This document shows, in pieces, positions 9,578 through 62,987 of a DNA stretch of 64,000 nucleotides; the stretch's first letter is position 1, and each line of letters begins with the position of its first letter. The translations under genes were made by a program, and so were the position numbers. Origin of the DNA: an uncultured Gemmatimonadales bacterium (lineage in GTDB: Bacteria > Gemmatimonadota > Gemmatimonadetes > Gemmatimonadales > Gemmatimonadaceae). The notes beneath the pieces are model-generated. The model made no database searches. It worked only from the letters and a program-made list of their open reading frames with translations, and was not told where the DNA came from. The stretch lies in contig CAWKNZ010000010.1 of NCBI GenBank assembly GCA_963851265.1, positions 128,001 to 192,000 on the forward strand. The letters run 5' to 3'.

Positions 9578-11259
9578 ATGCAGCTGACGCTCTGGACCTA
9601 CGAGGGACCGCCGCACGTGGGGGCGATGCGCGTCGCGGCGTCGATGCGGGGCGTGCACTACGTCCTGCACGCCCCGCAGGGCGACACCTACGCCGACCTG
9701 CTGTTCACGATGATCGAGCGCTCCGCCGCGCGCCCGCCGGTCTCGTACACCACCTTCCAGGCCCGCGACCTCGGCGGCGACACGGCCGGTCTCGTGATCG
9801 AAGCCGTGCGCGAGGCGGCCGCGCTCTTCGCGCCCGACGCGCTGCTCGTCGGCGAGTCGTGCACGGCCGAGCTGATCCAGGATCAGGCCGGCGCGCTCGC
9901 GAAGGGACTCGGGCTCGGCATCCCCGTCGTCCCCCTCGACCTGCCGGCGTACTCGAAGAAGGAGAACTGGGGCGCGGCCGAGACGCTCTACCAGCTCGTG
10001 CGCGCGACGTGCGCGGCGGACGCGCCCGCGCCGGGCACGACGCGGCCGCCGCGCGACCCCGCGCGTCGCCCGGTCGCGAACGTGTTAGGCCCGAGCGCGC
10101 TCGGCTTCCGCGCGCGCGACGACGCCCGCGAGATCGTCGCGCTGCTCGGTGAGATCGGGGTGGACGTGGGCGTCGTCGCGCCGCTCGGCGCGACGGTGGC
10201 CGACCTGCGGCGGCTTCCCGCGGCCGACCTCAACGTGTGCTACGCCGCCGAGATCGCGCTCTCGACGTGCGAGTGGCTGCGACGCACGTTCGGGCAGCCC
10301 GTGGTGCGTACCGTGCCGATCGGCGTCGGCGCGACGGGCGACTTCCTGCGCGAGGTGGCCGCGGCCGCGGGGCTCCCGACGCCCGCGGTGCGCCACGACG
10401 CGTCGCGCCTGCCCTGGTACTCGCGCTCCGTCGACTCGACGTACCTGACCGGCAAGCGGGTGTTCGTGTTCGGCGACGGCACGCACGCGTGCGCGGCCGC
10501 GCGCATGGTGGTCGAGGAGTTCGGCTTCGACCTCGTCGGGCTCGGGACGTACAGCCGCGAGATGGCGCGCGACGTGCGCGCGGCGGGCGCGAAGTACGGC
10601 GTGGAGGCGTTCGTGAGCGACGACTACCTCGACGTCGAGGCGCGGATCGCGGCGGCCGCGCCGGAGCTCGTGTTAGGCACGCAGATGGAGCGGCACACGG
10701 CCAAGCGGCTGGGGGTGCCCTGCGCGGTGATCTCGGCCCCGCTCCACGTGCAGGACGTGCCCGCGCGCTACTCGCCGCAGGTCGGGTGGGAGGGCGCGAA
10801 CGTGCTGTTCGACAGCTGGGTGCACCCGCTCATGATGGGGCTCGAAGAACACCTGCTCGGGATGTTCCGCAACGACTTCGAGTTCCACGACGGCGCGGCG
10901 CCGTCGCACCTCGGGTCGCACGCGGTGCCGGCCGGCGCGTCGGCCGCGGTCGGCGTGCCGCCGCGGGCCGCGGTGGTCGATCCGTCTCCTTTTGGTCGCG
11001 GTCGAACCGGTCGCGGTCGAACCGGTCTCGGTCGAAACGGTCGTGGTCGAACCCGTGGCGGCCCCGACGCCGCGCACGACCGAGCCCGCGCCGACCGAGG
11101 TCGTCGTGACGTTGCGGTGGGCGCCCGAAGCCGAGGCCGAGCTGCGCAAGATCCCGTTCTTCGTCCGCCCCAAGGCGCGCCGCAACACGGAGCGGTACGC
11201 GGCCGAGCGCGGCGTGGCCGACATCTCGATCGACACGCTGTACGAAGCGAAGGCGCACT

Positions 11260-11270
<11 letters not shown>
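9578..11270 (+). CDS. bchB: Light-independent protochlorophyllide reductase subunit B (+1 frameshift near 10990)
   Basis: [18 protein letters not shown]...[12 protein letters not shown]. The C-terminal PCP_red domain ([25 protein letters not shown]...YEAKAHYAR) lies in the +1 frame, 10992-11270. Confidence 0.9.
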
Positions 11271-16098
<4,828 letters not shown>

Positions 16099-38973: not shown

Positions 38974-40323
38974 TCAACGCAGCGTGTAGAGGTACGCCGC
39001 GATGTCGCGCGCGTCGCGGTCCGTCACGTCGAGGTTCGGCATCGCCCCGCCCGGCTCGTACTGTTGGGTCGTGCGCAGCCACGCGGTGAGGTTCTGGGGC
39101 GTGTTCGGCAACCGCCCCACGATGTACACGCGTCGCCCGTACCGGTCGAGCGGTGGTCCCACCTCGGCGTCCACCGGCCGGGCGACACCCGGGATCGCGT
39201 GGCACGAGCCGCAGCCGTAACGGCGCATCGCCGCCGGGCCACGCGTCGCGTCGCCACCTTCGACGAGCCAGGTGGGCGTGCCGCCGTGCGCGTCGCGACA
39301 CGCGGACGGCCCGCCCGCGATCGTGGCGGCGCAGACGGCGACCGCTGCCGCGCGCGCGGCCGGACGCCGTATCGGAGACGGGGCGTCGGACTCGCGCAGC
39401 CAGCGCACGAACAGGGCGCTCGCGACCCCAAGGTACACGATGCCCGCGGGGACCCACATGATCACGCCCGCCAGCTGCTGATCCTCGAGCGGCGTGAGTC
39501 CCCATGCGGCCGTGGTCCCGTAATGCCCGGTGTACCACGGGCGTACCGCGAAGGTGAGCGCGGCGCCGAGCAGGGCCATCGGCACGCCGGCAGCTGTCAC
39601 GTACAGCAGGCGTGCGCCGTCGCCGAAGCGGAGGGGCGCGTGCGACCGATGACGGGGCGCGGGACGCACGACCGGCCACCAGAACAGCGCGGCCGCGCCG
39701 AGGAGCGTGACGTGCTCCAGCGCGTGCACGGCTGGCCGGCGGAGCGCCCAATCGTACGGGGCCGGGGCGTGCCAGAACAGGACGCTGGCCAGGTGCAGCG
39801 TGATCGCTACGCCGGGCGAGGCGAGCAGCGCCGCCGCGGCGCGCACGCGGGCGCGCGCGGCCCACACGCGCCCCACCCGGACGCGCGTGCCGTCCGGAAA
39901 CGCCCAGAGCATCGCGAGCGCGGGCACGCCCGCGGCGAGGAGTGGCGCCGCGACGAGGATGAGCACCAGGTGCTGGCCCATGTGCGCGGTGAAGAGCGCG
40001 TCGGCCATCGCGTCGAGCGGCGTGAGCAACGCGAGCGCGAGCGCGACGAGTCCGGCCACGTACGCCCACGCGCGCCAGCGGACGATCCCGCGTCCCGCAC
40101 CGGCGCGCGCCCACGCGCGCCGGACGCCTACCGCGTACCACGCGCCGGCCGCGACGAGCCCCGCGACCACACCCGGGCTCGCGGGCCAGGTCCGCCAGAG
40201 ATCGTGCGGCTCGGGCGCGAGTCCCGGGTGTGCGTGCGCGAGTGCCGGGAGCGCAGCGACGGCGAGCGTGGCGCGCGCGACCGCCGAGCGCGCCGCGCGC
40301 GCGATCCGTGCGTTCGCGTTCAC
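38974..40323 (-). CDS. CtaG-type (caa3) oxidase assembly protein fused to a C-terminal cytochrome c
   Basis: LFTAHMGQHLVL, FWHAP, HALEH, DQQLAGVIMWVP followed in frame by YGCGSCHAIPG...AMPNL. Confidence 0.8.
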   Translation of the reverse strand: MNANARIARAARSAVARATLAVAALPALAHAHPGLAPEPHDLWRTWPASPGVVAGLVAAGAWYAVGVRRAWARAGAGRGIVRWRAWAYVAGLVALALALLTPLDAMADALFTAHMGQHLVLILVAAPLLAAGVPALAMLWAFPDGTRVRVGRVWAARARVRAAAALLASPGVAITLHLASVLFWHAPAPYDWALRRPAVHALEHVTLLGAAALFWWPVVRPAPRHRSHAPLRFGDGARLLYVTAAGVPMALLGAALTFAVRPWYTGHYGTTAAWGLTPLEDQQLAGVIMWVPAGIVYLGVASALFVRWLRESDAPSPIRRPAARAAAVAVCAATIAGGPSACRDAHGGTPTWLVEGGDATRGPAAMRRYGCGSCHAIPGVARPVDAEVGPPLDRYGRRVYIVGRLPNTPQNLTAWLRTTQQYEPGGAMPNLDVTDRDARDIAAYLYTLR

Positions 40324-40328
40324 GACCG

Positions 40329-41006
40329 TCAGGTTCCGCACGGCGGCACCAGGAACGGGGCGATCCCGTGCAGTACGCTCGCAGTGACGAAGACGAGGCT
40401 CGTCAGGATTCCCGACATCGCCATGAACCTCGTGCGCCCCTCGCCGATCTCGAGCGCGGCGCGCACGTTCGTCGTCCCGCCGAGGCGCGGCGCGCCGCGG
40501 TCGGTTCCGGCGCGGTCGGTTCCGCCACGGTCGGCGTCGCCGCGGCCGGCGCGGTCGTTCGCCGATCCGCCTCCCGTGCGACCGGCCCCTTGTTGTGCGC
40601 CCTGCGGCGCGTGATCGGCCGAGCCCTCGCCCCCGCCGCCCCCCTCTCCGCGCGTGCGCGTCCATTCGCGGTAGGCGAGCAGTCCGGCGCCGACGCCCAC
40701 GGCAACCGCGGCGAGGCTCACGGCGAGGGTGACCGCCTGCAAGCCGCCGAAGTCGGGCGTCCCGCGCGGATAGAGCCCTGGGTAGCAGGTGTGCGCCGCG
40801 AGCGCGTAGTCGGCGAGCGACTGAACGCTCCACGCGGCCGGCGCGCCGAAGATTCCGAACCAGAGCGCCGCGTAACTCGCGTCGCCGCGCGCGGGTGCGG
40901 GGTGCCCGGCCTCGTGCCGCGCCATCCGTTCGCCGGGCGTCCCACGACGCCCGCCCGCGACGTCGGCGTTCGCCCCGGGCTGCGGCGTCCCGTCGTGTGC
41001 GGTCAT
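40329..41006 (-). CDS. Membrane protein of the oxidase operon (possible accessory subunit)
   Basis: Three hydrophobic segments (LWFGIFGAPAAW...) and a GGAGG RBS, between coxI and ctaG. Confidence 0.6.
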   Translation of the reverse strand: MTAHDGTPQPGANADVAGGRRGTPGERMARHEAGHPAPARGDASYAALWFGIFGAPAAWSVQSLADYALAAHTCYPGLYPRGTPDFGGLQAVTLAVSLAAVAVGVGAGLLAYREWTRTRGEGGGGGEGSADHAPQGAQQGAGRTGGGSANDRAGRGDADRGGTDRAGTDRGAPRLGGTTNVRAALEIGEGRTRFMAMSGILTSLVFVTASVLHGIAPFLVPPCGT

Positions 41007-41014
41007 CGCGCCTC

Positions 41015-43519
41015 CTACCGCAGATGCGGTGTGACGTAGAGCGACGTGAACACCGCGAGCCACACCACGTCGACGAAGTGCCAGTACATCGCGGCGTTGG
41101 TCACCGCGAGGTGCCGGCGCGCCGTGAAGTGCCCGCGCGACGCGCGCACGAGCACGACCAGCAGCATGATCAGGCCCGCCGCGACGTGCGCGCCGTGGAA
41201 GCCGGTAATCGTGTAGAACAGCGAGGCGGACGCGTCGCTCGACGGGCCGAAGGTCTTCTGGCGGTACTCCACCAGTTGCAGCGCGAGAAACACGACGCCC
41301 ATGCCGATCGTGACCGCCACGCCGAGCTTGAGGCGCCCCTCGTTGCCGCGCCGCGCGCCGCGCTCCGCCCAGATCAGCACACCGCTGCTCGCGACGAGGA
41401 GCGCGGTGTTGACCCCGACGAGCTTGAGGTCGGGCGACCCGTAGAGCGGCCACGGGTTCGTCGACATCGAGCCGAGGTAGAAGTAGCTGAACAGGAAGTA
41501 GGCGAAGAGCGCCGCCTCCGTCCCGATCACGCAGCACATCCCCCAGAACCCGACCGAACTGCTGCCGAGCCCCGACGTCGGAAGGTCGCCGAAGGGCGTG
41601 TCGACGTCGCCGGTGTGGTGCAGCTGGTCCGACGACGGCCAGAGCCACACCACGATCGAGACCAGCGCCGCGCCAGCGCTCGACGCGGCGAGCCACCAGC
41701 GCCCGAACAGCAGGCCGTAGCTGAGCGCGAGCAACGACGCCGCGAGCACGACCGGCGCGTACGAATCGTCGGGCATGCGGATCACGGCGGTCGGCTCACC
41801 GTCGAGGGCGGAGGTCTCGAACGTCTCGCGCCCGTCGTCCAGCACCGGCCCGCAGTCGATGACGCTGCGCCCCGATCCTTCGGTCCCCAGCCGATCCTCC
41901 CACAACGGATGCCGGCTCGCCACCGTGGGGATCACGGCGAAGTTGTACGGCGGCGGGGGAGAGCTGGTCGCCCATTCCAGCGTCCCAGCGTCCCACGGAT
42001 TGGGACCGGCGCGCTGGCCGCGGTAGATGCTCACGACCACGTCGTAGACGAACAGGAGCATGCCGAGCGCGAAGAGCAGCGCGCCAACGCTCTCGACGAG
42101 GTTGGCCGACTCCCAGCCGAGCCCGGCCTGGTAGGTGTAGACGCGGCGTGGCATGCCGAGCATCCCGACGATGTGCATCGGGAAGAACAGCACGTTGGTC
42201 GCGACGAGGAGCGTCCAGAAGCTCCACTTCGCGAGCCGCTCGTCCATGAGCCGCCCGGTGAATTTCGGGAACCAGTAGATGATGCCGGCGAGCACCGGGT
42301 ACACGTTGATCCCGACGAGCACGTAGTGCAGGTGCGCGACGACGAAATACGTGTCGGTGAGCTGCCAGTCGAACGGCACCGCGGCCGTCATCACGCCGTT
42401 CACGCCGCCGATCACGAAGAGCAGGACGAACCCGAGCATGAACAGCATCGACGCCGTGAGGCGCGGGCGCCCGTGGTAGACCGTCGCGATCCACGCGAAC
42501 GTCGACACGCCGCTGGGGATCGCGATGATCATGCTCGCCGCGCCGAAGAAGGACAGCGAGAGCGGCGGCAATCCGGTGGCGAACATGTGGTGCACCCAGA
42601 CGCCGAAGCCGAGCAGCGCGGTGACCACGGTCGAGAGCGCGACGAAGGTGTAGCCGACGAGCGGGCGCCGCGCGAACGTCGGGAGCGCGTCCGACACGAT
42701 CCCGATCGCGGGCAGGACGATCACGTACACCCACGGGTGCCCGAACATCCAGAACAGATGCTGCCAGAGCAGCGGGTGCCCCTCGCTCGTCGCGTCGTAA
42801 AAGTGGAAGCCGAAGCGCCGGTCGAGGTAGAGGAAGATCAGCGCCGCCGAGAGCGCCGGCACCGCCGCGAGGTTCACGAACGACGTCGACAGCGTTCCCC
42901 ACACGATGATCGGCAGCCGGTTGAGCGACATCCCCGGCGCGCGCGTGGTGAAGAGGGTGACGATGAAGTTGACGGCGCCGACCGTCGTCGAGACGCTGAG
43001 CAGGAGCAGCCCGAGCGCGTAGTAGTCGATGTTGCGGCCCGGGTTGTACGCCGCCCCGGCGTAGGGCACGTAGTCGAACCACCCCGCGTTGGGCATCTCG
43101 CCGAGCACTGCGCTGGTGTAGATGAAGATGCCGGCGGCGAGGAAGGTCCAGTACGACAGCGCGTTCAGCCGGGGGAACGCCATGTCCCGCGCGCCGAGCA
43201 TCAGCGGCCAGAGGAAGTTGCTGAAGCCGCTCAGGACCGGCGAGGCGTAGAGGAAGATCATCGTCACGCCGTGCATGCTGAACAGCTCGTTGTACTGCTC
43301 CGGCCCGAGCAGCGATTCGTTGGCGCGGGCGAGCTGCGCGCGCAACGCGAGCGCCTCGAGCCCGCCGACGAGCAGGAAGACGAACGCCGTGACGAGGTAG
43401 CGCTTGCCGATCGTCTTGTGGTCGACGCTCGACAGGAATCCGCGCCAGCCGCGCGGCGTCTCCCAGGTGCGTTGCAGGCGCGCGACCGGGGCGCGGTCGA
43501 CGGCGACGAGGGTGGCCAA
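41015..43519 (-). CDS. ctaD: Heme-copper oxidase subunit I fused to subunit III (atypical A-like)
   Basis: SVDHKTIG, MHGVTMIF, FGHPWVY, WVHHMF, VAHLHYV, GMPRR; C-terminal TGFHGAHV and YWHFVDVVW of subunit III. TTG start with GGAG RBS. Confidence 0.9.
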   Translation of the reverse strand: MATLVAVDRAPVARLQRTWETPRGWRGFLSSVDHKTIGKRYLVTAFVFLLVGGLEALALRAQLARANESLLGPEQYNELFSMHGVTMIFLYASPVLSGFSNFLWPLMLGARDMAFPRLNALSYWTFLAAGIFIYTSAVLGEMPNAGWFDYVPYAGAAYNPGRNIDYYALGLLLLSVSTTVGAVNFIVTLFTTRAPGMSLNRLPIIVWGTLSTSFVNLAAVPALSAALIFLYLDRRFGFHFYDATSEGHPLLWQHLFWMFGHPWVYVIVLPAIGIVSDALPTFARRPLVGYTFVALSTVVTALLGFGVWVHHMFATGLPPLSLSFFGAASMIIAIPSGVSTFAWIATVYHGRPRLTASMLFMLGFVLLFVIGGVNGVMTAAVPFDWQLTDTYFVVAHLHYVLVGINVYPVLAGIIYWFPKFTGRLMDERLAKWSFWTLLVATNVLFFPMHIVGMLGMPRRVYTYQAGLGWESANLVESVGALLFALGMLLFVYDVVVSIYRGQRAGPNPWDAGTLEWATSSPPPPYNFAVIPTVASRHPLWEDRLGTEGSGRSVIDCGPVLDDGRETFETSALDGEPTAVIRMPDDSYAPVVLAASLLALSYGLLFGRWWLAASSAGAALVSIVVWLWPSSDQLHHTGDVDTPFGDLPTSGLGSSSVGFWGMCCVIGTEAALFAYFLFSYFYLGSMSTNPWPLYGSPDLKLVGVNTALLVASSGVLIWAERGARRGNEGRLKLGVAVTIGMGVVFLALQLVEYRQKTFGPSSDASASLFYTITGFHGAHVAAGLIMLLVVLVRASRGHFTARRHLAVTNAAMYWHFVDVVWLAVFTSLYVTPHLR

Positions 43520-43562
43520 GGGGTTCTCCGCGGGTGGCGAGGCGGGCGTGGACGCGCGGGCG

Positions 43563-44894
43563 TCAGCGCAGCGTCTGCAGGTAGTGGACGACGGCGAGCA
43601 GGTCGTTAGGCGGCAGCGGCAGCGTCGGCATCCGGCTGCCCGGCTTGGCACCCTGCGCGTTCGCGACCCAGCCGGCGAGGTTGCCCGTCGTGTTCGGCAG
43701 GATCCCGCCGGCGATCGTCTCGCGCGAGGCGACGTGCGTGAGGTCGGGCCCGAGGCGGCCCAGCGCGTCGCTCCCGCGCACGGCGTGGCAGGCGCCGCAG
43801 TTGGCGAGGAACACCGCCTGGCCGGCCCGCGCCAGCGAGTCGCCGCCCGCGCTGGCGGCGGACGGCGCCACGACCGGAGACGGCGCGGGCACCGGGGGCC
43901 CGAAGCCGTGCACGGCGGCGCCGGTCGCGGTGGGCGGCGGCGCCGTGGCCGGCATCGATTCGCCGACGGGCTGGTTGGCGCGGCCGGTCGCCGCGCTCAT
44001 GATCGCGGCCGGGACGAGGGCGGGCGCGGACTGCCGCTGCCCCTCCGCCCAGCGCTCGAACGCCGCCGGCGGATCGGCCACGACGTAGAGCGCCATCTTC
44101 GCGTGCTCCATCCCGCAGTACTCGGCGCACTGGCCGCGGTACCGCCCCGGGCGGTCCGCCTGGATCCACGTCTCGTTGCGCTGCCCGGGGATCAGGTCCG
44201 TCTTCCCCGCCAGCTCGGGAATCCAGAAGCTGTGGATCACGTCGGCCGTGCGCAGCCGGATGCGCACGGGCCGCCCCACCGGGATGTGCAGCTCGTTCGC
44301 CGTGGTGAAGGTGTGCTCGGGGAGCGAATCGCGATACTGCGCCTCCCACCACCACATGTGGCCCGTGACGTCGACGGTGATCGCGGGCGCGTCCGGCGGG
44401 CGGGCGGCGGCGCGGAGGGTCGCCGCCGTCGCGACGAAGGCGACGACGAGGATGACCACCGTTGCCGCGGTGCCCCAGTAGATCCACGGCAGCCCCTGGT
44501 CTCCACCGTGACGCTTCGCGTTGCCGTGCGTCGCCGCGGCGGCCTGGCCGCCGGATTGCGGCCCCGCGCTATCGTCGACCGCGAGCGCGTGGCGCATCGA
44601 CGGGCGCTCCCGCGCGCCCTCCCCCGCGTCGGGGCGGCGCCGGAAGATCGCCACGAGCAGGACCGCGGCGGTCGCCACGACCACCGCGACCGAGATCCCC
44701 GTCAACCACCACCCGAGCGTCGCCTCGACCTCGGCGGCCGGGCCCGACGGACGCATGTAGCTCGGCGAGGCCGCGTTGCCGCAGGCCGCGAGGGTGAGGA
44801 TGCCTAACGCTGCGACGAGGGCGGGTGCCCGCCGTGCCGCGCCGGTCGTCCCCGCCGCCGCCACGCGGGCGGCGCGGCGCTCACTGGTCAGCAT
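43563..44894 (-). CDS. ctaC: Cytochrome c oxidase subunit II with CuA and C-terminal cytochrome c
   Basis: Lipoprotein LAAC, GHMWWWE, DVIHSFWIP, CAEYCGMEHAKM, CGACH. Confidence 0.92.
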   Translation of the reverse strand: MLTSERRAARVAAAGTTGAARRAPALVAALGILTLAACGNAASPSYMRPSGPAAEVEATLGWWLTGISVAVVVATAAVLLVAIFRRRPDAGEGARERPSMRHALAVDDSAGPQSGGQAAAATHGNAKRHGGDQGLPWIYWGTAATVVILVVAFVATAATLRAAARPPDAPAITVDVTGHMWWWEAQYRDSLPEHTFTTANELHIPVGRPVRIRLRTADVIHSFWIPELAGKTDLIPGQRNETWIQADRPGRYRGQCAEYCGMEHAKMALYVVADPPAAFERWAEGQRQSAPALVPAAIMSAATGRANQPVGESMPATAPPPTATGAAVHGFGPPVPAPSPVVAPSAASAGGDSLARAGQAVFLANCGACHAVRGSDALGRLGPDLTHVASRETIAGGILPNTTGNLAGWVANAQGAKPGSRMPTLPLPPNDLLAVVHYLQTLR

Positions 44895-45516
44895 TCTGCG
44901 CCCCGCGCAGCGTGCGTGCGCCGGTCGTATCCTCGTCCCCCAGGTCGCCCTGCTTGCCGCGGTCCGCGAGCGGCGCGGGGAACGTGCCGTGGAACGACTC
45001 GATGTACGTCACGAGCTTCCATAGCTGCTCGGGCGGGAGCGCGCGCCCCCAGGCCGGCATCCCCTGCGGCCGCCCCTCCCAGAGCGTCTTGTAGATCTCG
45101 GCGGGCGAGCCGCCGTACCGCCAGGACCGGTCGCGCAGGTTGGGACCCATGCCGCCGCGCAGGTCGTAACCGTGGCAGTCGGCGCAGTTCATCCGCTGGT
45201 AGAGCTCCCCGCCCTCGCGCGCGGCCGCGGAGTCGCCCTCGTACGGGTTGCGGATGGTGCTGGCGAGCGTGTTCGGCGTCGCGCCCGCCCAGTCGCCCAG
45301 CGGAACGCGGGCGAGCGTTCCCTCGTCGGGGATCGTGTTCGTGCCGCGCCCGGCACCGCGGATCTCCTGCTCGTGGCCGGCGTCGGCGCACGCCGCGAAC
45401 GCGGCGGCGGTGGCGCAGAGGGCGAGTAGCGCGGCGGCACGCGCCGCCGTTGGGCGCATCGCGGTGGGGCGGCTCGTCGTGGGACGCATCGTCGTGGCGC
45501 GCATCGTCGTGCTCAC
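44881..45516 (-). CDS. Monoheme cytochrome c lipoprotein (probable electron acceptor of the PQQ enzyme, XoxG/cytochrome cL-like role)
   Basis: FAAC signal, NPYEGD, CADCHG, GGMGPNLRD..WRYG, GMPAWG. Confidence 0.8.
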   Translation of the reverse strand: MSTTMRATTMRPTTSRPTAMRPTAARAAALLALCATAAAFAACADAGHEQEIRGAGRGTNTIPDEGTLARVPLGDWAGATPNTLASTIRNPYEGDSAAAREGGELYQRMNCADCHGYDLRGGMGPNLRDRSWRYGGSPAEIYKTLWEGRPQGMPAWGRALPPEQLWKLVTYIESFHGTFPAPLADRGKQGDLGDEDTTGARTLRGAQNADQ

Positions 45517-47462
45517 CGGTGGCCTGTCCCCGAGCCCGGCGGGCTTCCCGTGGCGCCCCCCTGCTGCTGGTTGGGCAGCGAGGGGACCGCGGGGACGTTC
45601 TCGGGGAGCGTGTAGACGTACAGCGTCCCGCCGCGCGGCGGGAAGCCCTTCTCGGCCTGCAGCGTCATCGCGAAGCCGCCGACGCCGCTCATCACCGCCA
45701 CGTACTGGTGCCCGTCGGGGCCGCGGTAGGTCATCGGCGGGCTGTGGATGCCGCTGCCTAACTTCTGCGACCAGAGCACCTGTCCGGTGCGCGCACTCAC
45801 CGCCCGGAACCAGCCGTCGGTGGTGCCGTAGAAGACCAGGTCGCTGGCCGTGACCATCGGCCCGCCGGCGACGTAGAGGTGCTCGGGGATCGCCCACGCG
45901 CGCTTGCCCGCGGCCGCGTCCCAGGCGATCAGCTCGCCGTAGTTCCCCCCCGGCCCCGGGTGGCGCGTCATGTCGGCGCCCCAGTACGGCGTGCCGGCGA
46001 TGTAGCTGACCTCGCGCCCGCGGTAGTCCATGCAGGCGTTGTTGACCGACGCGTAGTACCAGCCCGTGCGCGGCGAGTACGCCGCGGGCTGCCAGTTGGA
46101 TACGCCGATGTCGGGCGGGCAGATGTTGCGCACCCAGCGCCCCGGCGGGATCGTCTGCTTGTCCGCGTTGACGATCGGTTGCATGGTCTTGGGGTCGATC
46201 CCGCTCGACCAGTTCTCGTAGCCGAACGGCTTGGCGACCAGCACCTCTCCCGTCTCGCGGTCGATCGTGTAGGCGTACCCGTTCCGGTTGAACTGGACCA
46301 GCGTCTTGCGCGTGCGCCCGTTCACCGGGATGTCGGCGAGCACGTTCCAGTTCACGCCGTCGTAGTCCCACTGGTTGTTAGGCGTGAACTGGAAGGCCCA
46401 GCGCGCGTACCCCGTGTTGGCGTCGCGCCCGAACACCGCGCTCGTGAACAGGTTGAGCCCGGGCCGCTGGTCGGCGTTCCACGGTCCGGGGTTGCTCGTG
46501 CCGTTGTAGACGAGGTTGAGGTCGGGGTCGTACGAAATCCACCCCCAGACCGCGCCGGCGCCGTGCTTCCACGCGTCGGCGGGCCAGGTCCGGGCGCCCA
46601 TGTCCTTGCCCTTGAGCCAGCTGTAGAACGGCTTGTAAGTGTCGTTGATGCGCACGAGCGAGTCGGGGCCGGTGCTGAAGGCGCGCCAGAGCTCCTTGCC
46701 CGTGTGTACGTCGAGCGCGGCCATCCAGCCGTGCGCGCCCATCTCGCCTCCGGAGTTGCCGACGTAGACCTTGTCGCCGACGACGAGCGGCGCCATGGTC
46801 ATCGTGACGCCGTCCTCCACGTTCGCCATCTTCGTGCGCCACACCTCCTTCCCCGTCGCGGTGTCGACGGCAACCGTGTGGTCGTCGAGGAGGTTGTAGA
46901 TCAACTTCCCGTCGGCGATCATCGCGCCACGCGTCACCGCGTCGCAGCACGCCTTTCCGATCGCGGCCGGCGAGGGGTTGGGCTTGAAGGTCCACTTGAG
47001 TGCCGGCGCGCCGGGCGTCGTGAGGTCGAGCGCGTACGCGTTGCTCGGAAAGGGCGCGACGACGTACATCGTATTCCCGGCGACGAGCGGCGCGGCCTCG
47101 TGCCCGTGCCGGACCGCGGTCGAGAACGAGAAGGCGAGCTTGAGCCGCCCCACGTTGGCGGGCGTGATCTCGGTCAGCGGGCTGTAGCGCGTCATCCCGT
47201 AGTCGCGCCCGGTGGTCAGCCAGTTGCCGTCGGTCGTGCCCGGCGGGTACCACCGGGCGGCGCGCTCGAGCATGGCCGGGTTGGCGACGGCGTTCGCGCC
47301 CCCGGGGGCCGCGGCGCCCGGCGCAGCGTTAGGCGCGGCGTCGGGCCGGAGGGTGCCGGCGGCGAGGCCGCGGTCGTCGCGCTTGCCGCAGGCGGCCGCG
47401 AGCGTGAGGGCGCCCGCGGCGAGGGCGGTACGGGTGCGGGAGGAGCACGTCGAGTGAGGCAT
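45513..47462 (-). CDS. PQQ-dependent methanol/ethanol-family dehydrogenase, XoxF-like (lanthanide motif)
   Basis: RYSPLTEITPANV, vicinal ACCDAVTRG, GGEMG, WGWISYDP, NPGPW, WDYDG; lipoprotein signal LAAAC. Confidence 0.88.
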   Translation of the reverse strand: MPHSTCSSRTRTALAAGALTLAAACGKRDDRGLAAGTLRPDAAPNAAPGAAAPGGANAVANPAMLERAARWYPPGTTDGNWLTTGRDYGMTRYSPLTEITPANVGRLKLAFSFSTAVRHGHEAAPLVAGNTMYVVAPFPSNAYALDLTTPGAPALKWTFKPNPSPAAIGKACCDAVTRGAMIADGKLIYNLLDDHTVAVDTATGKEVWRTKMANVEDGVTMTMAPLVVGDKVYVGNSGGEMGAHGWMAALDVHTGKELWRAFSTGPDSLVRINDTYKPFYSWLKGKDMGARTWPADAWKHGAGAVWGWISYDPDLNLVYNGTSNPGPWNADQRPGLNLFTSAVFGRDANTGYARWAFQFTPNNQWDYDGVNWNVLADIPVNGRTRKTLVQFNRNGYAYTIDRETGEVLVAKPFGYENWSSGIDPKTMQPIVNADKQTIPPGRWVRNICPPDIGVSNWQPAAYSPRTGWYYASVNNACMDYRGREVSYIAGTPYWGADMTRHPGPGGNYGELIAWDAAAGKRAWAIPEHLYVAGGPMVTASDLVFYGTTDGWFRAVSARTGQVLWSQKLGSGIHSPPMTYRGPDGHQYVAVMSGVGGFAMTLQAEKGFPPRGGTLYVYTLPENVPAVPSLPNQQQGGATGSPPGSGTGHR

Positions 47463-47518
47463 CACCACGGATCGGGGCACGGCGGAACAGGGCGCAGGGC
47501 GCGGACGCGGCGTGGCGG

Positions 47519-48529
47519 TCACGGCCGTGCGGGGAGCGGGACGATGTAGAGCGCGTTCTGCTGCATCGACGACACGGCGAGCCGGCCGCGGCGCGTGTCG
47601 ACGGCGATCCCGGCCGGCGAGGTCAGGCCCGTGAGCACGGGCACGAGCGGCTCGCCGACGCGGAAGCGATACACGGCCCGCGCATCCCAACTCGACACGA
47701 ACCAGCCGCCCCCCGGGGCGGGGCGCAGCCCGTCGACGCGACCGCCCGGGAGGCGGACGACGACGACCTTGCCGCTGTCCGCCGGGCCGACGCGCTCGAG
47801 CACGCTGTCGCCGAAGGTCGTCACGAGGGCGCGCCCGTCGGGCCACGCGGCGACGCCGTCCGGCCGCCCGAGGGCGAGCCCGCGCGCTACCACGTGGACG
47901 GTTCCCCCCGGTCGGCCCGGGACGATGCGGTAGACGGCGTCCAGGTCCTGGGACGTGTCGGCCCGGACGGCGCCGTGCGCGCCGGGGTGCCGGTCGGGGC
48001 CGGTGTCGGTGACCCAGAGCGAGCCGTCGTCGGCGTAGACGACGTCGTTGAGTCGGAGCCCCGGAGTCGGGACGACGCCGATCGGGCGCCCCGTCCGGCG
48101 GTCGAAGAAGCGCACGGCGGCGAGGTCGCACACGGCCAGCGTGTCGCCGCGGATGGCGAGCCCCATCGGGGCGTCGAGTCGGACGCCCCCTCGGCCGCCG
48201 CGAATCCACGCGCGGTCGAGCACCCGCCCATCCGGCGCGACGCGGCTGACGTATCCGTTGTCGTCGCGCGCCGTCGGACTGCCGTTCACGTTCGCGACCA
48301 GGTAGACGTCGGCCGTCGAGTCGTAGACGAGGTTTTCGGGCCCGCGGAAGCCGACGCCGCGCACGACCGTCGTGTCGCCGCGTCCCCGCCGCCCGTCCGG
48401 CCATGCGCGCGCGGGCGCCCGGCCCGCGGTCGCGGCGAGGACGACCGCGGGAAGCAGGAGCGCGAGTTCGCGTCGCCGCGCGTGCGGGCCGGACGCGGGC
48501 GGGCGCACGGGGGCGTCGGGGCGCGTCAC
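47519..48529 (-). CDS. Secreted beta-propeller protein (SMP-30/gluconolactonase-like)
   Basis: Arg-rich signal; GFRGPENLVYD, LDAPMGLAI, LNDV, PDGVA, SPAGIAVD repeats. Confidence 0.7.
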   Translation of the reverse strand: MTRPDAPVRPPASGPHARRRELALLLPAVVLAATAGRAPARAWPDGRRGRGDTTVVRGVGFRGPENLVYDSTADVYLVANVNGSPTARDDNGYVSRVAPDGRVLDRAWIRGGRGGVRLDAPMGLAIRGDTLAVCDLAAVRFFDRRTGRPIGVVPTPGLRLNDVVYADDGSLWVTDTGPDRHPGAHGAVRADTSQDLDAVYRIVPGRPGGTVHVVARGLALGRPDGVAAWPDGRALVTTFGDSVLERVGPADSGKVVVVRLPGGRVDGLRPAPGGGWFVSSWDARAVYRFRVGEPLVPVLTGLTSPAGIAVDTRRGRLAVSSMQQNALYIVPLPARP

Positions 48530-49302
48530 GGGCCGGTGCTCGCGATGGGCAGCGAAAGCCCCGCGAGGAGCGTGAGCGGGTGCGCCGCGTCGAGATAGCG
48601 CCGTTCGCCGCGGGGCACCTCGTCGCCCGCACGCGGCAGCCCGGTCGCCACGTAATCCAGCAGCACCGTGACGGCCACCCCGTGCGCCCACGTCGCGCGC
48701 GCGAGCCGCGCGAACGGGTAGGCGTCGGTGACCAGATCGAGCTCGAGCTTGTGCGTGTACGAGCTGCGATCGTCAGGCCGCTGCGCAGGACCGTACAGGT
48801 CGCCGACGTGGGCGCTCAGGTCGAACCACCCCGCGGCATCGGCGGTCCGGACGAGCGCCCCGGTGGCGACGAGCGTAACGGTCGGCGAGTTCGCGTGGAG
48901 GTACGTCGAGCCGACCTCGCTCGCCGTGTAGCGCGTGAACGGGTTACCCTGCTCGGTCGCGTTCGGCGTCCACTGCACGCTCCCCAGGAGCCCGACGCGG
49001 GGAATCGGCGTCTGCACGGTCCCGACGAGCGTCAGCTGCAGGTTGCTCTCGGGCGGGAGCCGGCGCACGCTGCCGTCGCTCAGCCGCTCGACGCGGGGCG
49101 CGCCGGCGATCGGCGACCGGTTGAGCGCGGGAAAGAAGGTGAGCGCCGGCGAGCAGAGGACGTGGCACGGCGCCGCCGGTGCCTGGGCGGCGACCGGTGC
49201 GGCGACCGGCACGGCGAGTGCCGTTAGGCAACGGGCGGCGGCCGACCGCCCCGCGTCCCGCGCGCGCGGGACGGCCGCCGCGCGGCCCACCCGCCTCGCC
49301 AT
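48526..49302 (-). CDS. Hypothetical secreted protein (possibly outer-membrane)
   Basis: Signal-like N-terminus, CHVLCSP, alternating beta-strand pattern; stop overlaps the next start. Confidence 0.55.
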   Translation of the reverse strand: MARRVGRAAAVPRARDAGRSAAARCLTALAVPVAAPVAAQAPAAPCHVLCSPALTFFPALNRSPIAGAPRVERLSDGSVRRLPPESNLQLTLVGTVQTPIPRVGLLGSVQWTPNATEQGNPFTRYTASEVGSTYLHANSPTVTLVATGALVRTADAAGWFDLSAHVGDLYGPAQRPDDRSSYTHKLELDLVTDAYPFARLARATWAHGVAVTVLLDYVATGLPRAGDEVPRGERRYLDAAHPLTLLAGLSLPIASTGP

Positions 49303-49366
49303 CCGCCCGAACACCCCGTGACGCACGTGTCCTCCCGCCCGCCATGACCGCAGCAGGCTCCGCCGG

Positions 49367-49423: not shown

Positions 49424-49547
49424 GGCGTGAGCGCGGTGGCGTGCAAGTCCCGGGCGCGGGGGCCCACGCCGTGCGCGCCACGGCCTTGGGATATCTTTGT
49501 GCGACCGCGCCCGGCACCGCCGGTCGTGCCACGCGCAGCCTCCGCCC

Positions 49548-50333
49548 ATGCCTCCGTCCCGCTCCGCCGCCCGCCCGCCCGCTGCCGGAACGCCTCGCGC
49601 ACGCGGGGCCGCTCCGGCGCGCACCGCCACTCGGGGTGACGAACGCAATCGACTCCTGGCTCGCCTGCCCAGCGCCGAGTACGCCCGCCTGGCGGCGCAC
49701 CTCGCGCCCGTGACCTTCCCCGCGCGCCATGTCGTGTACGAGCCGGGGGCACCGATCACGCACGTCTACTTCCCGCAGGCCGGGATGTTCTCCCTGGTCC
49801 TGCCGCTCGCCGACGGCGGCACGGTCGAGGTCGGGATGGTCGGCCGCGAGGGCATGGCCGGCATCCCGGCCGTGCTCGGGGTCGACGCGCCGGCCATCCG
49901 CTGCATCGTGCAGCTCGAGGTGCGCGCGCAGGCCCTGCGCGTCCCGGTGCTGCGCCGCCTGTCGCGCGGCGACGCCGCGCTCCACGTCCTCCTCAAGCGG
50001 TACGTCCAGACACACATGGACCAGATCGCCCAGGGGGCGGCGTGCAACCGGCGGCACACGCTCGAGCGCCGCTGCGCGCGCTGGCTGCTCATGAGCCACG
50101 ACCGCGCCGAGGCCGACGCGTTTCCGCTCACGCAGGAGTTCCTCGCCTACATGCTCGGCGTGCACCGCCCCGCCGTCGTCACGGCGTTAGGCGTCCTCCG
50201 GAACGCGGGGCTGGTCGAGTCGTCGCACGAGCGCGGGGGCGGAATCCGCATCCTGGACCGCCCCGGGCTGGAGCGCGCGGCGTGCGAGTGCTACGCCGCG
50301 ATCCGCCGGCGGTTCGACGCGGTGTTCGCGTGA
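49548..50333 (+). CDS. Crp/Fnr family transcriptional regulator
   Basis: NRLLARLP, VEVGMVGREG, ACNRRHTLERRCARWLL, LTQEFLAYMLGV, LERAACECY. Confidence 0.9.
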   Translation: MPPSRSAARPPAAGTPRARGAAPARTATRGDERNRLLARLPSAEYARLAAHLAPVTFPARHVVYEPGAPITHVYFPQAGMFSLVLPLADGGTVEVGMVGREGMAGIPAVLGVDAPAIRCIVQLEVRAQALRVPVLRRLSRGDAALHVLLKRYVQTHMDQIAQGAACNRRHTLERRCARWLLMSHDRAEADAFPLTQEFLAYMLGVHRPAVVTALGVLRNAGLVESSHERGGGIRILDRPGLERAACECYAAIRRRFDAVFA

Positions 50334-58435: not shown

Positions 58436-59759
58436 GGGTACAGACCGGGTTGATTGTTGACACGCCTGACCGGGAGGAGGGTTGACACTGCTCACTTGCA
58501 TGGCGGACCCTCAGGAGGGACGCCATGCCCTGGCAGGAGACCGACCCCGTGGACCAGCGCGAGCGCTTCATCGCCGACCATCACCGCTCGCTCTAGTCTA
58601 TGACGGAGTTCTGCGCCCGCTACGGCGTGAGCCGTCAGACCGGGTACAAGTGGCGCGCTCGGTACGACGCGGGCGGCCGCCCGGCACTCCGCGAGCGCAG
58701 CCACGCGCCGCATGCGTGTCCCCGTCGGGTCGAGGACGCCGTGGCGGAGCTGCTCGTCGCCGCCCGCGACGCGCACCCGAGCTGGGGGCCGCGCAAGCTG
58801 TTCGCCTGGCTGGCGCCGCGGCACCCGCGCGTCGCCGCCTGGCCGGCCGCGAGCACCACCGGCGACCTGCTCGTGCGGCGCGGCCTCGTGAAGGCGCGGC
58901 GGCGGCGGCGGGCGCCCGTGCATCCCGGCGTGGTGCCCGCGACAACGGCCGCGCCGAACGATCTGTGGGCGCTCGACTTCAAAGGACAGTTCCGCATGCG
59001 CGACGGCGTGTACTGCTATCCGCTAACGGTCGCCGACCTCCACACGCGCGACTTGCTCGACTGCCGCGGCCTGCCCTCGACCGAGGGGCACGACGCGCGG
59101 CGCGCGCTGGAGCGGGCGTTCCGCACCTACGGCCTGCCGCGCGCGATCCGCACGGACGCCGGCGTCCCGTTCGCCACCCGCGGCGTGCACGGGCTCTCGC
59201 CGCGCAACGTGTGGTGGCTCCGCCTCGGCATCGTGCACCAGCGCATCCTCCCGGGCTGCCCCCAGCAGAATGGGGCCCACGATCGCATGCACCGCACGCT
59301 CGAGGCGGAGGCGCGCCGGCGGCCGCAGGGGACGCGCGCCGCGCAGCAGCGCCGCTTCGACGCCTTCCGGGCGGGAGAATCCCGCCACGCGTACAACGCC
59401 GAGCGGCCGCGCGAGGCGTTAGGCGGGAACACGCCGGCGTCACGCTACACGCCCTCGACGCGGCCCTACCCGGCGCGTCGCCCGCCGCTCGACTACCCCG
59501 GGCACTACCGGGTGAAGCGCGTGACCAACGCCGGCACGTTCCGCTTCAAGGACCGGCTGCTCTTCCTCGCGAACGCGCTCAAGCAGCACCACATCGGGCT
59601 CGAGGAGTCCGACGCCGGCGTGTGGTCGATCTACTTGGGCCCTGTCCTCCTCGCCCGCCTGGACGAGCGCGACCACGTCATCCGCGGCTGACCCCGCGTG
59701 CACACAGCGTCAACCATCATCCCGGTCTACGCTGTCAACGATCAACCCGGTTGCTGACG
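58436..59759 (+). mobile_element. IS481-family insertion sequence (probably inactive)
   Basis: About 50-bp imperfect terminal IRs with internal repeats (ccgggttgattgttgaca...gttgacac / gtcaac...tgtcaacgatcaacccgg). Confidence 0.85.
58525..59691 (+). pseudogene. IS481 transposase with premature stop
   Basis: MPWQETDPVDQRERF, in-frame TAG at 58594-58596, then WALDFKGQF, IRTDAG, QQNGAHDRMHRTL. Confidence 0.85.
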
Positions 59760-61667: not shown

Positions 61668-62987
61668 TGGTATGATCCGGGCTGAGGGGTGACACAACAT
61701 TCTAGGCTGAGGGGTGACACCCGCCAGACTTCGGGCACTCTCTACGGAGGTGCCCATGCCCTGGAGCGAGACCACCCCGACGGACGAGCGCCTGCAGTTC
61801 GTCGCCGACCTGCGCCGCGGGACGGACGAGATGGCCGTACTCTGCCGCCGCTATGGCGTGAGCCGCAAGACCGGGTACAAATGGCGCGACCGGTACGCCG
61901 CCGAGGGCGCGGCCGGCCTCGCGGAACGCTCGCACGCGGTGCACATCTGCCCGCACGCGACCGCGCCGGACGCCGTCGACGCGCTCGGCGAGCTGCGCCG
62001 CCGGCACCCGACCTGGGGCCCGAAGAAGCTGCTGACCGTGCTCGCGGCACGCCGACCGCGGCTCGCGCTCCCGGCGCCCAGTACCGCGGCCGCACGACGC
62101 AAACGCGCCGGCCTCGTCACGAGTCGCACGAGACGCCGCACGCCGGGCCACCCCGGCCGCCCCACGGCGGCGATGGACGCGCCGAACGCGATCTGGACGG
62201 CCGACTTCAAGGGCGAGTTCAAGACCCGCGACGGGGTGTACTGCTACCCGCTCACCGTGTGCGACGGCTACAGCCGCACGCTGCTCGCCTGCCGCGGCCT
62301 ACCCTCGACGCGTACCGCCGGCGCGCGGCCCGTCGTCGAGCGCCTGTTCTGCGAGCATGGCCTGCCCGCGCGCATCCGGAGCGACAACGGCGTGCCCTTC
62401 GCGACCATCGCGTTGGGCCGCCTCTCGACGTTGAGCGTCCGGTGGGTGCGCCTCGGCATCCTGCCCGACCTGATCGAGCCGTCCTCGCCGCAACAGAACG
62501 GGCAGCACGAACGCATGCACCACACACTCACAGCCGAGGCGACCCGGCCCGCGGCGGCCACCATGGCCGCGCAGCAGCGCGTCTTCGACCGCTTCCGCCG
62601 CGAGTACAACGAGGAGCGGCCGCATGAGGCGTTAGGCAAAGCCACCCCGGCCAGCCGGTACGCGCCGTCGCCGCGGCCGTACCCCACCCGGCTGCCCCCG
62701 CTCGAGTACCCGGCGCATTGGGAGGTGCGCCGCGTCAGCCGCAACGGCGGTATCCGGTGGTACGACGCGTGGGTGAACGTGAGCCATGTGCTCGCGGAGG
62801 AGTACGTCGGCTTCGAGGAGATCGACGCTGGCGTATGGAACGTGGCGTTCGGGCCGCTCGTGCTCGGCCGCTTCGACGAGCGCACGCTCAAGATCACCGA
62901 CGTGAACGGTTACCGCAGCCGCGACCCCCGGCAGGTGTAACCCATCAGGCGAGAACGAAGTGTCACCTATCATCCCGGCCGGACACA
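61668..62987 (+). mobile_element. IS481-family insertion sequence
   Basis: Imperfect IRs (ccgggctgaggggtgacac...gctgaggggtgacac / gtgtaacccatcaggc...gtgtcacctatcatcccgg..aca). Confidence 0.87.
61756..62940 (+). CDS. IS481 transposase (intact ORF)
   Basis: MPWSETT, GVSRKTGYKW, WTADFKGEF, IRSDNG, QQNGQHERMH (DDE). Confidence 0.92.
   Translation: MPWSETTPTDERLQFVADLRRGTDEMAVLCRRYGVSRKTGYKWRDRYAAEGAAGLAERSHAVHICPHATAPDAVDALGELRRRHPTWGPKKLLTVLAARRPRLALPAPSTAAARRKRAGLVTSRTRRRTPGHPGRPTAAMDAPNAIWTADFKGEFKTRDGVYCYPLTVCDGYSRTLLACRGLPSTRTAGARPVVERLFCEHGLPARIRSDNGVPFATIALGRLSTLSVRWVRLGILPDLIEPSSPQQNGQHERMHHTLTAEATRPAAATMAAQQRVFDRFRREYNEERPHEALGKATPASRYAPSPRPYPTRLPPLEYPAHWEVRRVSRNGGIRWYDAWVNVSHVLAEEYVGFEEIDAGVWNVAFGPLVLGRFDERTLKITDVNGYRSRDPRQV

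Follow-up and report, generated by a model that had tools for sequence, protein, structure and literature searches.

In the 64,000-nucleotide stretch analysed here, called the window below, the reverse strand of the uncultured Gemmatimonadales contig was found to contain an operon for an A-family heme-copper oxidase, the subunit I of which carries a tryptophan in place of the D-channel Glu286 and a serine in place of the K-channel Lys362. The catalytic subunit is encoded at 41015..43519 (minus strand) as a CoxI+III fusion of 834 amino acids with a likely TTG start and GGAG upstream. It was found to contain the Pfam COX1 and COX3 domains and to score 683.7 against the NCBIfam model TIGR02891 (CtaD; cut-off 670.75), and its AlphaFold model had a predicted local distance difference test score of 93.7. 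Its closest named homologues were found in the Gemmatimonadaceae, and two homologues with 90% identity are also 834 amino acids long. The CoxII gene (43563..44894, minus strand) encodes the CuA ligands followed by a C-terminal heme c domain of the caa3 type, and was found to score over the cut-off of TIGR02866. The fusion of subunits I and III, which also occurs in 5 of 58 long related loci from genomes and 1 of 26 from metagenomes, and the heme c domain on subunit II had both been overlooked in the preliminary description of this DNA.

Residues of subunit I are counted from the likely TTG start at 43519. Reference positions follow E. coli CyoB, where H284, E286, Y288, K362 and D135, as well as the His ligands, served as verified anchor points. 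In the alignment to CyoB the His ligands were all found to be kept, namely H106 (H83), H284 (H261), H333/H334 (H310/H311) and H419/H421 (H396/H398), as was the cross-link Tyr288 (Y265). Helix VI was found to contain W263 in place of Glu286, encoded by TGG at 42731..42733 and two changes from GAG, and helix VIII was found to contain S339 in place of Lys362 (42503..42505) and S336 in place of Thr359. The K-channel entry Glu of subunit II was replaced by Ile (44481-44483, minus strand), the column being defined by alignment to the CoxII of this genome's canonical paralogue (L003). All of these had been read by eye in the preliminary description and were confirmed by alignment. The D-channel entry, which it had also described as retained, is present as D112, and the retention extends over the whole channel, with Y41, N101, D112, N119, S122, S177, T178 and N184 within 42968..43399 (D135 corresponding to D112, and N124/N142/N207 to N101/N119/N184). 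Misalignment of helix VI or helix VIII was ruled out by their invariant flanks and by the concordance of the pairwise and multiple alignments.

The tryptophan was found at position 286 in 120 of the 120 closest homologues, which were chosen by overall similarity and not for Trp, and in two genomes of the same genus at 92-93% amino-acid identity, and it is therefore not a product of chance, sequencing error or decay. Among 82 CoxI open reading frames (ORFs) in 80 metagenome loci, which were found through other motifs and not selected on the Trp motif, 74 contained Trp, seven contained Glu or Asp (all with Gln362) and one was truncated. A codon-pattern search for the motif in species genomes gave at least 119 stretches, with 118 CoxI among the matches listed, and the named loci (80) span Pseudomonadota, Acidobacteriota, Gemmatimonadota, Actinomycetota and Binatota among others; within the Gemmatimonadota the motif was found in 21 of 301 genomes.

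Conservation was counted in 72 genome-locus sequences, which are the Trp sequences with at least 440 core residues (327 of 420 sequences passed the filter), and in 74 metagenome sequences of the Trp clade, with 67 canonical Glu+Lys sequences for comparison. The genome-locus set was selected on the Trp motif, so that its Trp count is circular and its other columns are not. H284, Y288, H333, H334, H419 and H421 were conserved in 72/72 and 74/74 sequences, H106 in every Trp-clade sequence covering that position, and the Cys/His/Cys/His/Met ligands of CuA in 72/72 Trp-clade CoxII covering the site; the heme c motif CxxCH was present in 71 of 75 related CoxII. For nine related pairs the ratio of nonsynonymous to synonymous substitution rates (dN/dS) lay at 0.03-0.14, and the window gene gave 0.17 in comparison with its two congeners. 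The Trp clade is under purifying selection, which likewise rules out a pseudogene, and the Trp oxidase is real, selected and widespread.

W170, D407, R481 and R482 were found to be nearly invariant in the clade, and F420 was replaced by Leu or Ile. The LTDTY sequence, which had been listed among the losses, does place T388 (42356..42358) at the position of His411 but is no signature of the clade, since Thr was found there in 18/67 canonical sequences, including this genome's canonical paralogue, and His in 13/72 Trp-clade sequences. The Glu of the CuA loop (CxExC), which is presumably a Mg ligand, was Gln, Ala or Val in 29/72 Trp-clade subunits II, mostly of beta- and gammaproteobacteria. As a separate observation, a second conserved Asp was found as Gln in 23 Trp-clade CoxII, again mostly of beta- and gammaproteobacteria (the affected CoxII include those of loci L004, L006, L016 and L047).

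On the K side, Lys362 was found in 0/72 genome-locus and 0/74 metagenome sequences of the Trp clade, and the subunit II entry column was hydrophobic in 72/72 sequences with a residue there, with Glu in 0/72. Position 362 was mostly Ala (46/72), as was position 365. The remainder of the K side was found to contain S299 (71/72), Ser or Thr at 359 (72/72), the kept Y288 and Ser or Thr at 356 (49/72). Helix VII contained T297 and T300 (42620..42631; E. coli 320 and 323), both new in the clade; position 323 was Ile in 65/67 canonical sequences and Thr in 71/72 and 74/74 Trp-clade sequences, as well as in most of a sister clade with Gln362. The statements on side-chain facing, here and below, rest on helical periodicity or on known structures. 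T300 would lie on the helix VII face that carries the C-family channel residues (PMC8239418 Table 3 and supplement 5; the mapping to E. coli 312/316/319/327 was made here), and many natural A-family enzymes are without Lys (PMC8239418 supplement 5). These residues speak for a K-side route made of Ser and Thr without the Lys, like that of the B and C families, by which all protons would enter, the Trp plugging a D-channel left as water conduit or structural element. Such a route is considered decidedly unlikely, as 362 and 365 are mostly Ala, subunit II has lost its entry Glu, Ala stands at 356 in the window protein, and the invariance of D135, N142 and N207 would be left unexplained.

The D-channel of the 72 Trp-clade sequences was found to contain D135 in 70 (and Glu in the other 2), N142 in 72, N207 in 72, Ser or Thr at 200 in 72, at 201 in 70 and at 211 in 72, and Y61 in 71. 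The sister Gln clade (n=20) has replaced D-channel residues, with N207 in 0, N124 in 1 and Ser or Thr at 201 in 2 sequences, so that the fold does not need them. The YS motif before the CuB His was absent, the two positions being F-G/A in 72/72 sequences and Tyr at 282 being found in 0/72. With helix limits as the sole guide, the middle of the membrane showed no Glu, Asp, Lys or Arg specific to the clade, so that the earlier reading of a differently wired O2 reductase stands; compensating Glu or Lys residues, which the preliminary description had named as a possible objection, did not appear as clade-specific in the alignment. Two candidates for a compensating group were rejected: E55 (E. coli 75) is conserved but was also present in 27/67 canonical sequences, and helix II residue 116 (R. 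sphaeroides I112) was Leu, Ser, Ala or Gln and not conserved. An I112E change is said to rescue E286A in R. sphaeroides, for which no paper was found.

The preliminary description had also suggested an electron sink or O2 scavenger, which in its pure form would be non-electrogenic and would take its protons from the periplasmic side. The absence of both protonatable channel residues and of the entry Glu is consistent with this, as are the accessory nature of the gene and the remodelled cluster on the periplasmic side (T378 in 71/72, with H411 and the CuA Glu variable). The D-channel kept along its full length and strongly constrained on the cytoplasmic side argues against it, and the membrane positions of the Trp clade showed no new, conserved acidic route leading in from the periplasm; a pure sink is thus regarded as very unlikely.

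The membrane helices of the clade were found to contain about a dozen typical polar gains, including Y91, S97, S100, T179, T209, S211, N216, T297, T300, T378 and N405, spread over helices II, IV, V, VII, IX and X (Y91, S97 and T179 within 42968..43399). Helix V contained a polar stripe of T209, S211, S213 and N216 (E. coli 232/234/236/239; 42872..42895), positions that are mostly hydrophobic or small in canonical A1 enzymes and the facing of which is taken from periodicity only. T209, S213 and N216 would share the helix V face with L243/L246/I250, which line the channel towards E286 in the part of PMC4256069 available. Positions 116, 238 and 289, presumably close to Glu286, hold large, conserved residues in canonical sequences and mostly smaller ones in the Trp clade. 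These gains, the near invariance of W170, D407, R481 and R482 and a D-channel conservation equal to that of canonical pumps would fit a rebuilt pump, in which protons are pumped despite the losses. This is judged unlikely, given that Tyr at 282 is absent throughout, that neither input path has a titratable side chain, that H411 and the CuA-loop Glu are relaxed, and that the enzyme is nearly always accessory. A more particular form, in which a water wire held by Ser, Thr, Asn and Tyr around the invariant Trp would pump without Glu, Lys or YS, perhaps within a chain from a lanthanide dehydrogenase to O2, is rather improbable.

In its class assignment the window enzyme was found to contain the six His, the helix VI Tyr and the D-channel residues of the A family, with tree and fold placement in agreement, and to be without the A-family Lys362 and subunit II entry Glu. 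The Glu of the A1 motif XGHPEVY is replaced by Trp and the A2 motif YS is absent, so that the earlier statement that the enzyme fits neither A1 nor A2 holds for the motifs, but by the tree the enzyme descends from within A1 (node 95/86). The B family (ba3) has lost the D-channel and uses a single K-analogue path; here the D-channel is kept, and the SoxB model scored 65 bits against 684 for CtaD. The quinol oxidases bo3 and aa3-600 are excluded by the presence of CuA and, in the aa3-600 alignment, by Val and Gln at the positions of the Arg and His that, with an Asp, are taken to form the quinol site. A heme A synthase gene was found in the genome.

Canonical K362 mutants keep peroxide turnover, and this bears on the proposal that the main substrate is not O2 and that the enzyme acts as a cytochrome c peroxidase or nitric oxide reductase (NOR), which is regarded as extremely doubtful. 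A-family enzymes with side activity on nitric oxide are described in the accessible part of PMC11214002. The same text gives the NORs (c, q, e, s, g, n and bNOR) as lacking the active-site Tyr, which is invariant in the Trp clade, and the NOR Glu ligand is absent here. The peroxide half-cycle (P-F-O steps), according to the partial sources used, runs through the D path with its Glu, which is missing, and no gene for denitrification stood out in the four regions read (two of the Trp clade; one without annotation).

Subunit II fused to heme c gives the window enzyme a caa3 architecture, and its top sequence and fold match was the Thermus thermophilus caa3 oxidase (2YEV; E 6e-146; template modelling score of 2YEV_A 0.86/0.91), which likewise has the I+III fusion and heme c on subunit II. 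The 2YEV enzyme contains the A2 motif YSHP and the Lys, whereas the window protein contains FGHPW and Ser. The A1 enzymes of the aa3, caa3 and bo3 types (E. coli CyoB, B. subtilis aa3-600, mycobacterial CtaD and R. sphaeroides 1M56) share with it the metal ligands, Tyr288 and the D-channel; the window protein differs from them in E286W, K362S, Ile for the subunit II Glu, Leu or Ile for F420 in its clade, and the extra polar helix residues. Lys-less A-family oxidases are known from acidophilic iron oxidisers and others (bioRxiv 2020.03.01.968255, as far as its text is available; PMC8239418 Table 3). They are likewise without the subunit II Glu and keep the D-channel, but those of the iron oxidisers are of the A2 type, unlike the window enzyme. 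No Trp-clade member was recognised in the rows of PMC8239418 Table 3, which has no column for position 286. The Trp enzyme is a variant of the A-family oxidase rather than a separate system.

An IQ-TREE phylogeny was computed from 58 sequences with columns 286 and 362 removed and was rooted on six A2 rows; B-family, C-family and NOR sequences were outside this tree, and their exclusion rests on database ranking and motifs. The Trp clade was found to be monophyletic (100/99; its root support of 0.705 in FastTree was superseded) and sister to the Gln362 clade (joint support 100/99), and both were nested among Glu+Lys A1 sequences (95/86). The Gln362 clade shares with the Trp clade the absence of Lys, Thr323 and the operon layout; it keeps Glu or Asp at 286, adds Glu at 120/198/207 and drops the D-channel Asn, whereas the Trp clade shows the reverse. 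The preliminary description had proposed a coordinated loss, and both Glu and Lys are indeed gone, but the loss was likely stepwise, because Gln362 is carried by the sister clade and mostly kept in two of the three basal Trp lineages. The likely order of changes starts with Lys giving way to Gln, followed by replacement of Glu by Trp and finally of Gln by Ala, Ser, Gly or Thr. Basal members of the Trp clade (L062, L025; L053, L022, L036, L082, L061, L056) with Gln or Thr at 362 and loss of Asn124 are possible intermediates.

The genome of the window was found to contain four A-family subunits I, of which one is canonical (C2), two belong to the Trp clade (window and C7) and one to the Gln clade (C9), and all three non-canonical ones adjoin dehydrogenases dependent on pyrroloquinoline quinone (PQQ). 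The C7 oxidase (L001 ~9897-11800; C7:420232-421803) is 62% identical with Thr at 362, and its operon contains two PQQ-family dehydrogenases, a cytochrome c, a separate CoxIII and a CtaG-cytochrome c. The C9 oxidase (L002 8204-10261) contains Glu286 with Gln362 and Asn135, is without Asn124, and lies beside a PQQ dehydrogenase. In a Methylobacter locus (L047), a Trp-clade and a Gln-clade subunit I were found within 14 kb.

The window operon, all on the minus strand, was found in the order PQQ dehydrogenase, cytochrome c, CoxII-c, CoxI+III, small membrane protein and CtaG-cytochrome c. The dehydrogenase (45513..47480, start approximate) is an XoxF-like member of the methanol/ethanol family, over the cut-off of TIGR03075, and contains adjacent Cys-Cys and the D-x-D motif, which is taken as a lanthanide sign; its top match in the PDB was 4MAE, followed by lanthanide-dependent XoxF entries. 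The mono-heme cytochrome c (44881..45516; Pfam Cytochrom_C, with weak MoxG/PedF matches below cut-off) is the likely carrier between dehydrogenase and oxidase. The small membrane protein (40329..41006) gave zero matches in Pfam and NCBIfam and is a homologue of the hypothetical gene that type a-II operons carry at this place (BLASTP E 8e-6 to that of Sinorhizobium), followed by a Caa3_CtaG copper-assembly factor fused to cytochrome c (38974..40341) identified by domain search.

This is the gene order of the cytochrome oxidase (COX) operon type a-II (Degli Esposti et al. 2014, PMC4013037), given in the part of that paper available as PQQ dehydrogenase, cytochrome c, CoxII-c, CoxI, CoxIII, small membrane protein and CtaG, except that CoxI and CoxIII are fused here. 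Type a-II is defined there by gene order, and the word "channel" is absent from the main text and supplement as available. The enzyme encoded by operons of this layout belongs to the Gln clade in Azospirillum argentinense and Sinorhizobium medicae and to the Trp clade in Methylocella tundrae. The K-channel given to "subtype a & a-II" in a row of a 2021 table (PMC8239418, in the part available) is not borne out by these sequences. Both the a-II operon layout and the Lys-less A-family oxidases are thus already published.

The oxidase is nearly always accessory, as 66 of 70 rows of Trp holders also carry an HPEVY oxidase (70 of 83 chosen entries, two rows being one genome and one genome, G338, being unpublished); the remaining four were two with an A2 enzyme having Lys and two assemblies, of unstated completeness, without another complete oxidase. 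A PQQ dehydrogenase was found in the flank of 31/58 genome and 18/26 metagenome long related loci, and 69 of 70 flanking PQQ dehydrogenases contained the D-x-D motif; the loci of Burkholderiaceae were mostly without the dehydrogenase. In this genome at least four PQQ-family dehydrogenase genes lie beside oxidase operons, yet pqqC and pqqE were not found, and PQQ may be scavenged by this organism.

Upstream of the operon an SMP-30/gluconolactonase-like protein (47519..48691, minus strand) was identified by domain search; outside the genus it was found in 0/58 genome and 0/26 metagenome long related loci and is not a conserved member. A 266-amino-acid ORF (48526-49326) without Pfam or NCBIfam match follows, and a Crp/Fnr-type regulator (49497-50333) is divergently transcribed. 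Two further ORFs (58600-59691 and 61714-62940) resemble IS481-family transposases by eye. A scan for promoters and terminators gave nothing clearly above shuffled sequence. On its other side the oxidase operon adjoins a photosynthesis gene cluster that looks complete (hemA, bch genes, puhABC, pufBALMC, crtF, bchID and puhE; window 1190-38936), the genes of which were mostly named by eye, with bchI, bchD and puhE named by profile. The adjacency looks incidental, because two congeneric genomes carry the operon (82-83% DNA identity) and the cluster's end on separate contigs; with matches to puhE, pufM or bchZ in 0/84 long related loci and a single bchI-like match, a link between oxidase and photosynthesis was ruled out.

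The constraint on the D-channel, with the branch-point Glu lost, is the main argument for the reading preferred here, to which a probability of roughly 0.45 is given: an accessory, electrogenic O2 reductase that would be fed by the XoxF-like PQQ dehydrogenase via cytochrome c, would take its chemical protons through the D-channel and would pump little. From gene order and cofactor motifs, electrons would pass from the PQQ dehydrogenase to cytochrome c, heme c/CuA, heme a and finally heme a3/CuB, bypassing the quinone pool. The chemical protons would come from the cytoplasm via the retained D-channel, with few or none pumped. By prediction, W263 would occupy the branch point at which Glu286 normally passes protons to either the pump site or the active site, and the new Ser, Thr and Asn on helices II, IV and V may keep a chain of waters in place around it, with possible help from the helix VII Thr on the old K side. 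The enzyme would then conserve about one charge per electron instead of two.

Several points weigh against this reading. A2 enzymes are treated as pumps. Pumping is said to be possible without the Glu, going by the title alone of Backgren 2000. Within the clade, N124 is kept in 61/72 sequences and lost in 11, and the Gln clade used for comparison has diverged more (mean identity 0.53 against 0.67); in the window protein, position 238 is Val and the CuA-loop Glu is still present. In two more distant pairs with the window gene dN/dS was 0.35-0.45, probably because the G+C content of third codon positions of 0.97 compresses dS. Some of the HPEVY paralogues counted are themselves Lys-less, nearly half of the genome loci are without a PQQ dehydrogenase, and pqqC and pqqE were not found in this 94%-complete genome, two of three other genomes searched scoring over the cut-off. 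The chief difficulty is the requirement for both residues in canonical enzymes, in which the reductive steps depend on the K path and the Glu is the branching point of the D path (PMC8361435, PMC7196763 and PMC6115622, in the parts available), so that turnover with neither is without precedent in the literature examined.

No description of the Trp clade was found in a literature search that included the motif and covered mostly open texts; supplements and datasets beyond these may list such sequences. Because the CoxI+III protein passes the CtaD equivalog cut-off, it would count as an ordinary pump in metabolic models, for which the annotation of Trp-clade oxidases as standard CtaD matters. 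The current gating and proton-delivery models of A-type oxidases rest on Glu286 and Lys362, and a selected clade of several phyla without both is a ready-made natural experiment on working or pumping without either, with cultured and sequenced members in Methylocella tundrae, Methylocystis sp. JAN1, Paraburkholderia phytofirmans, Nitrosospira multiformis and Methylobacter. If the enzyme pumps, the need for a titratable gate would be challenged and pumping would require no amino-acid donor of protons where the D-channel ends; if it does not, it would be a natural uncoupled oxidase. If mutation of the D-channel abolishes its activity, one channel can serve all four steps.

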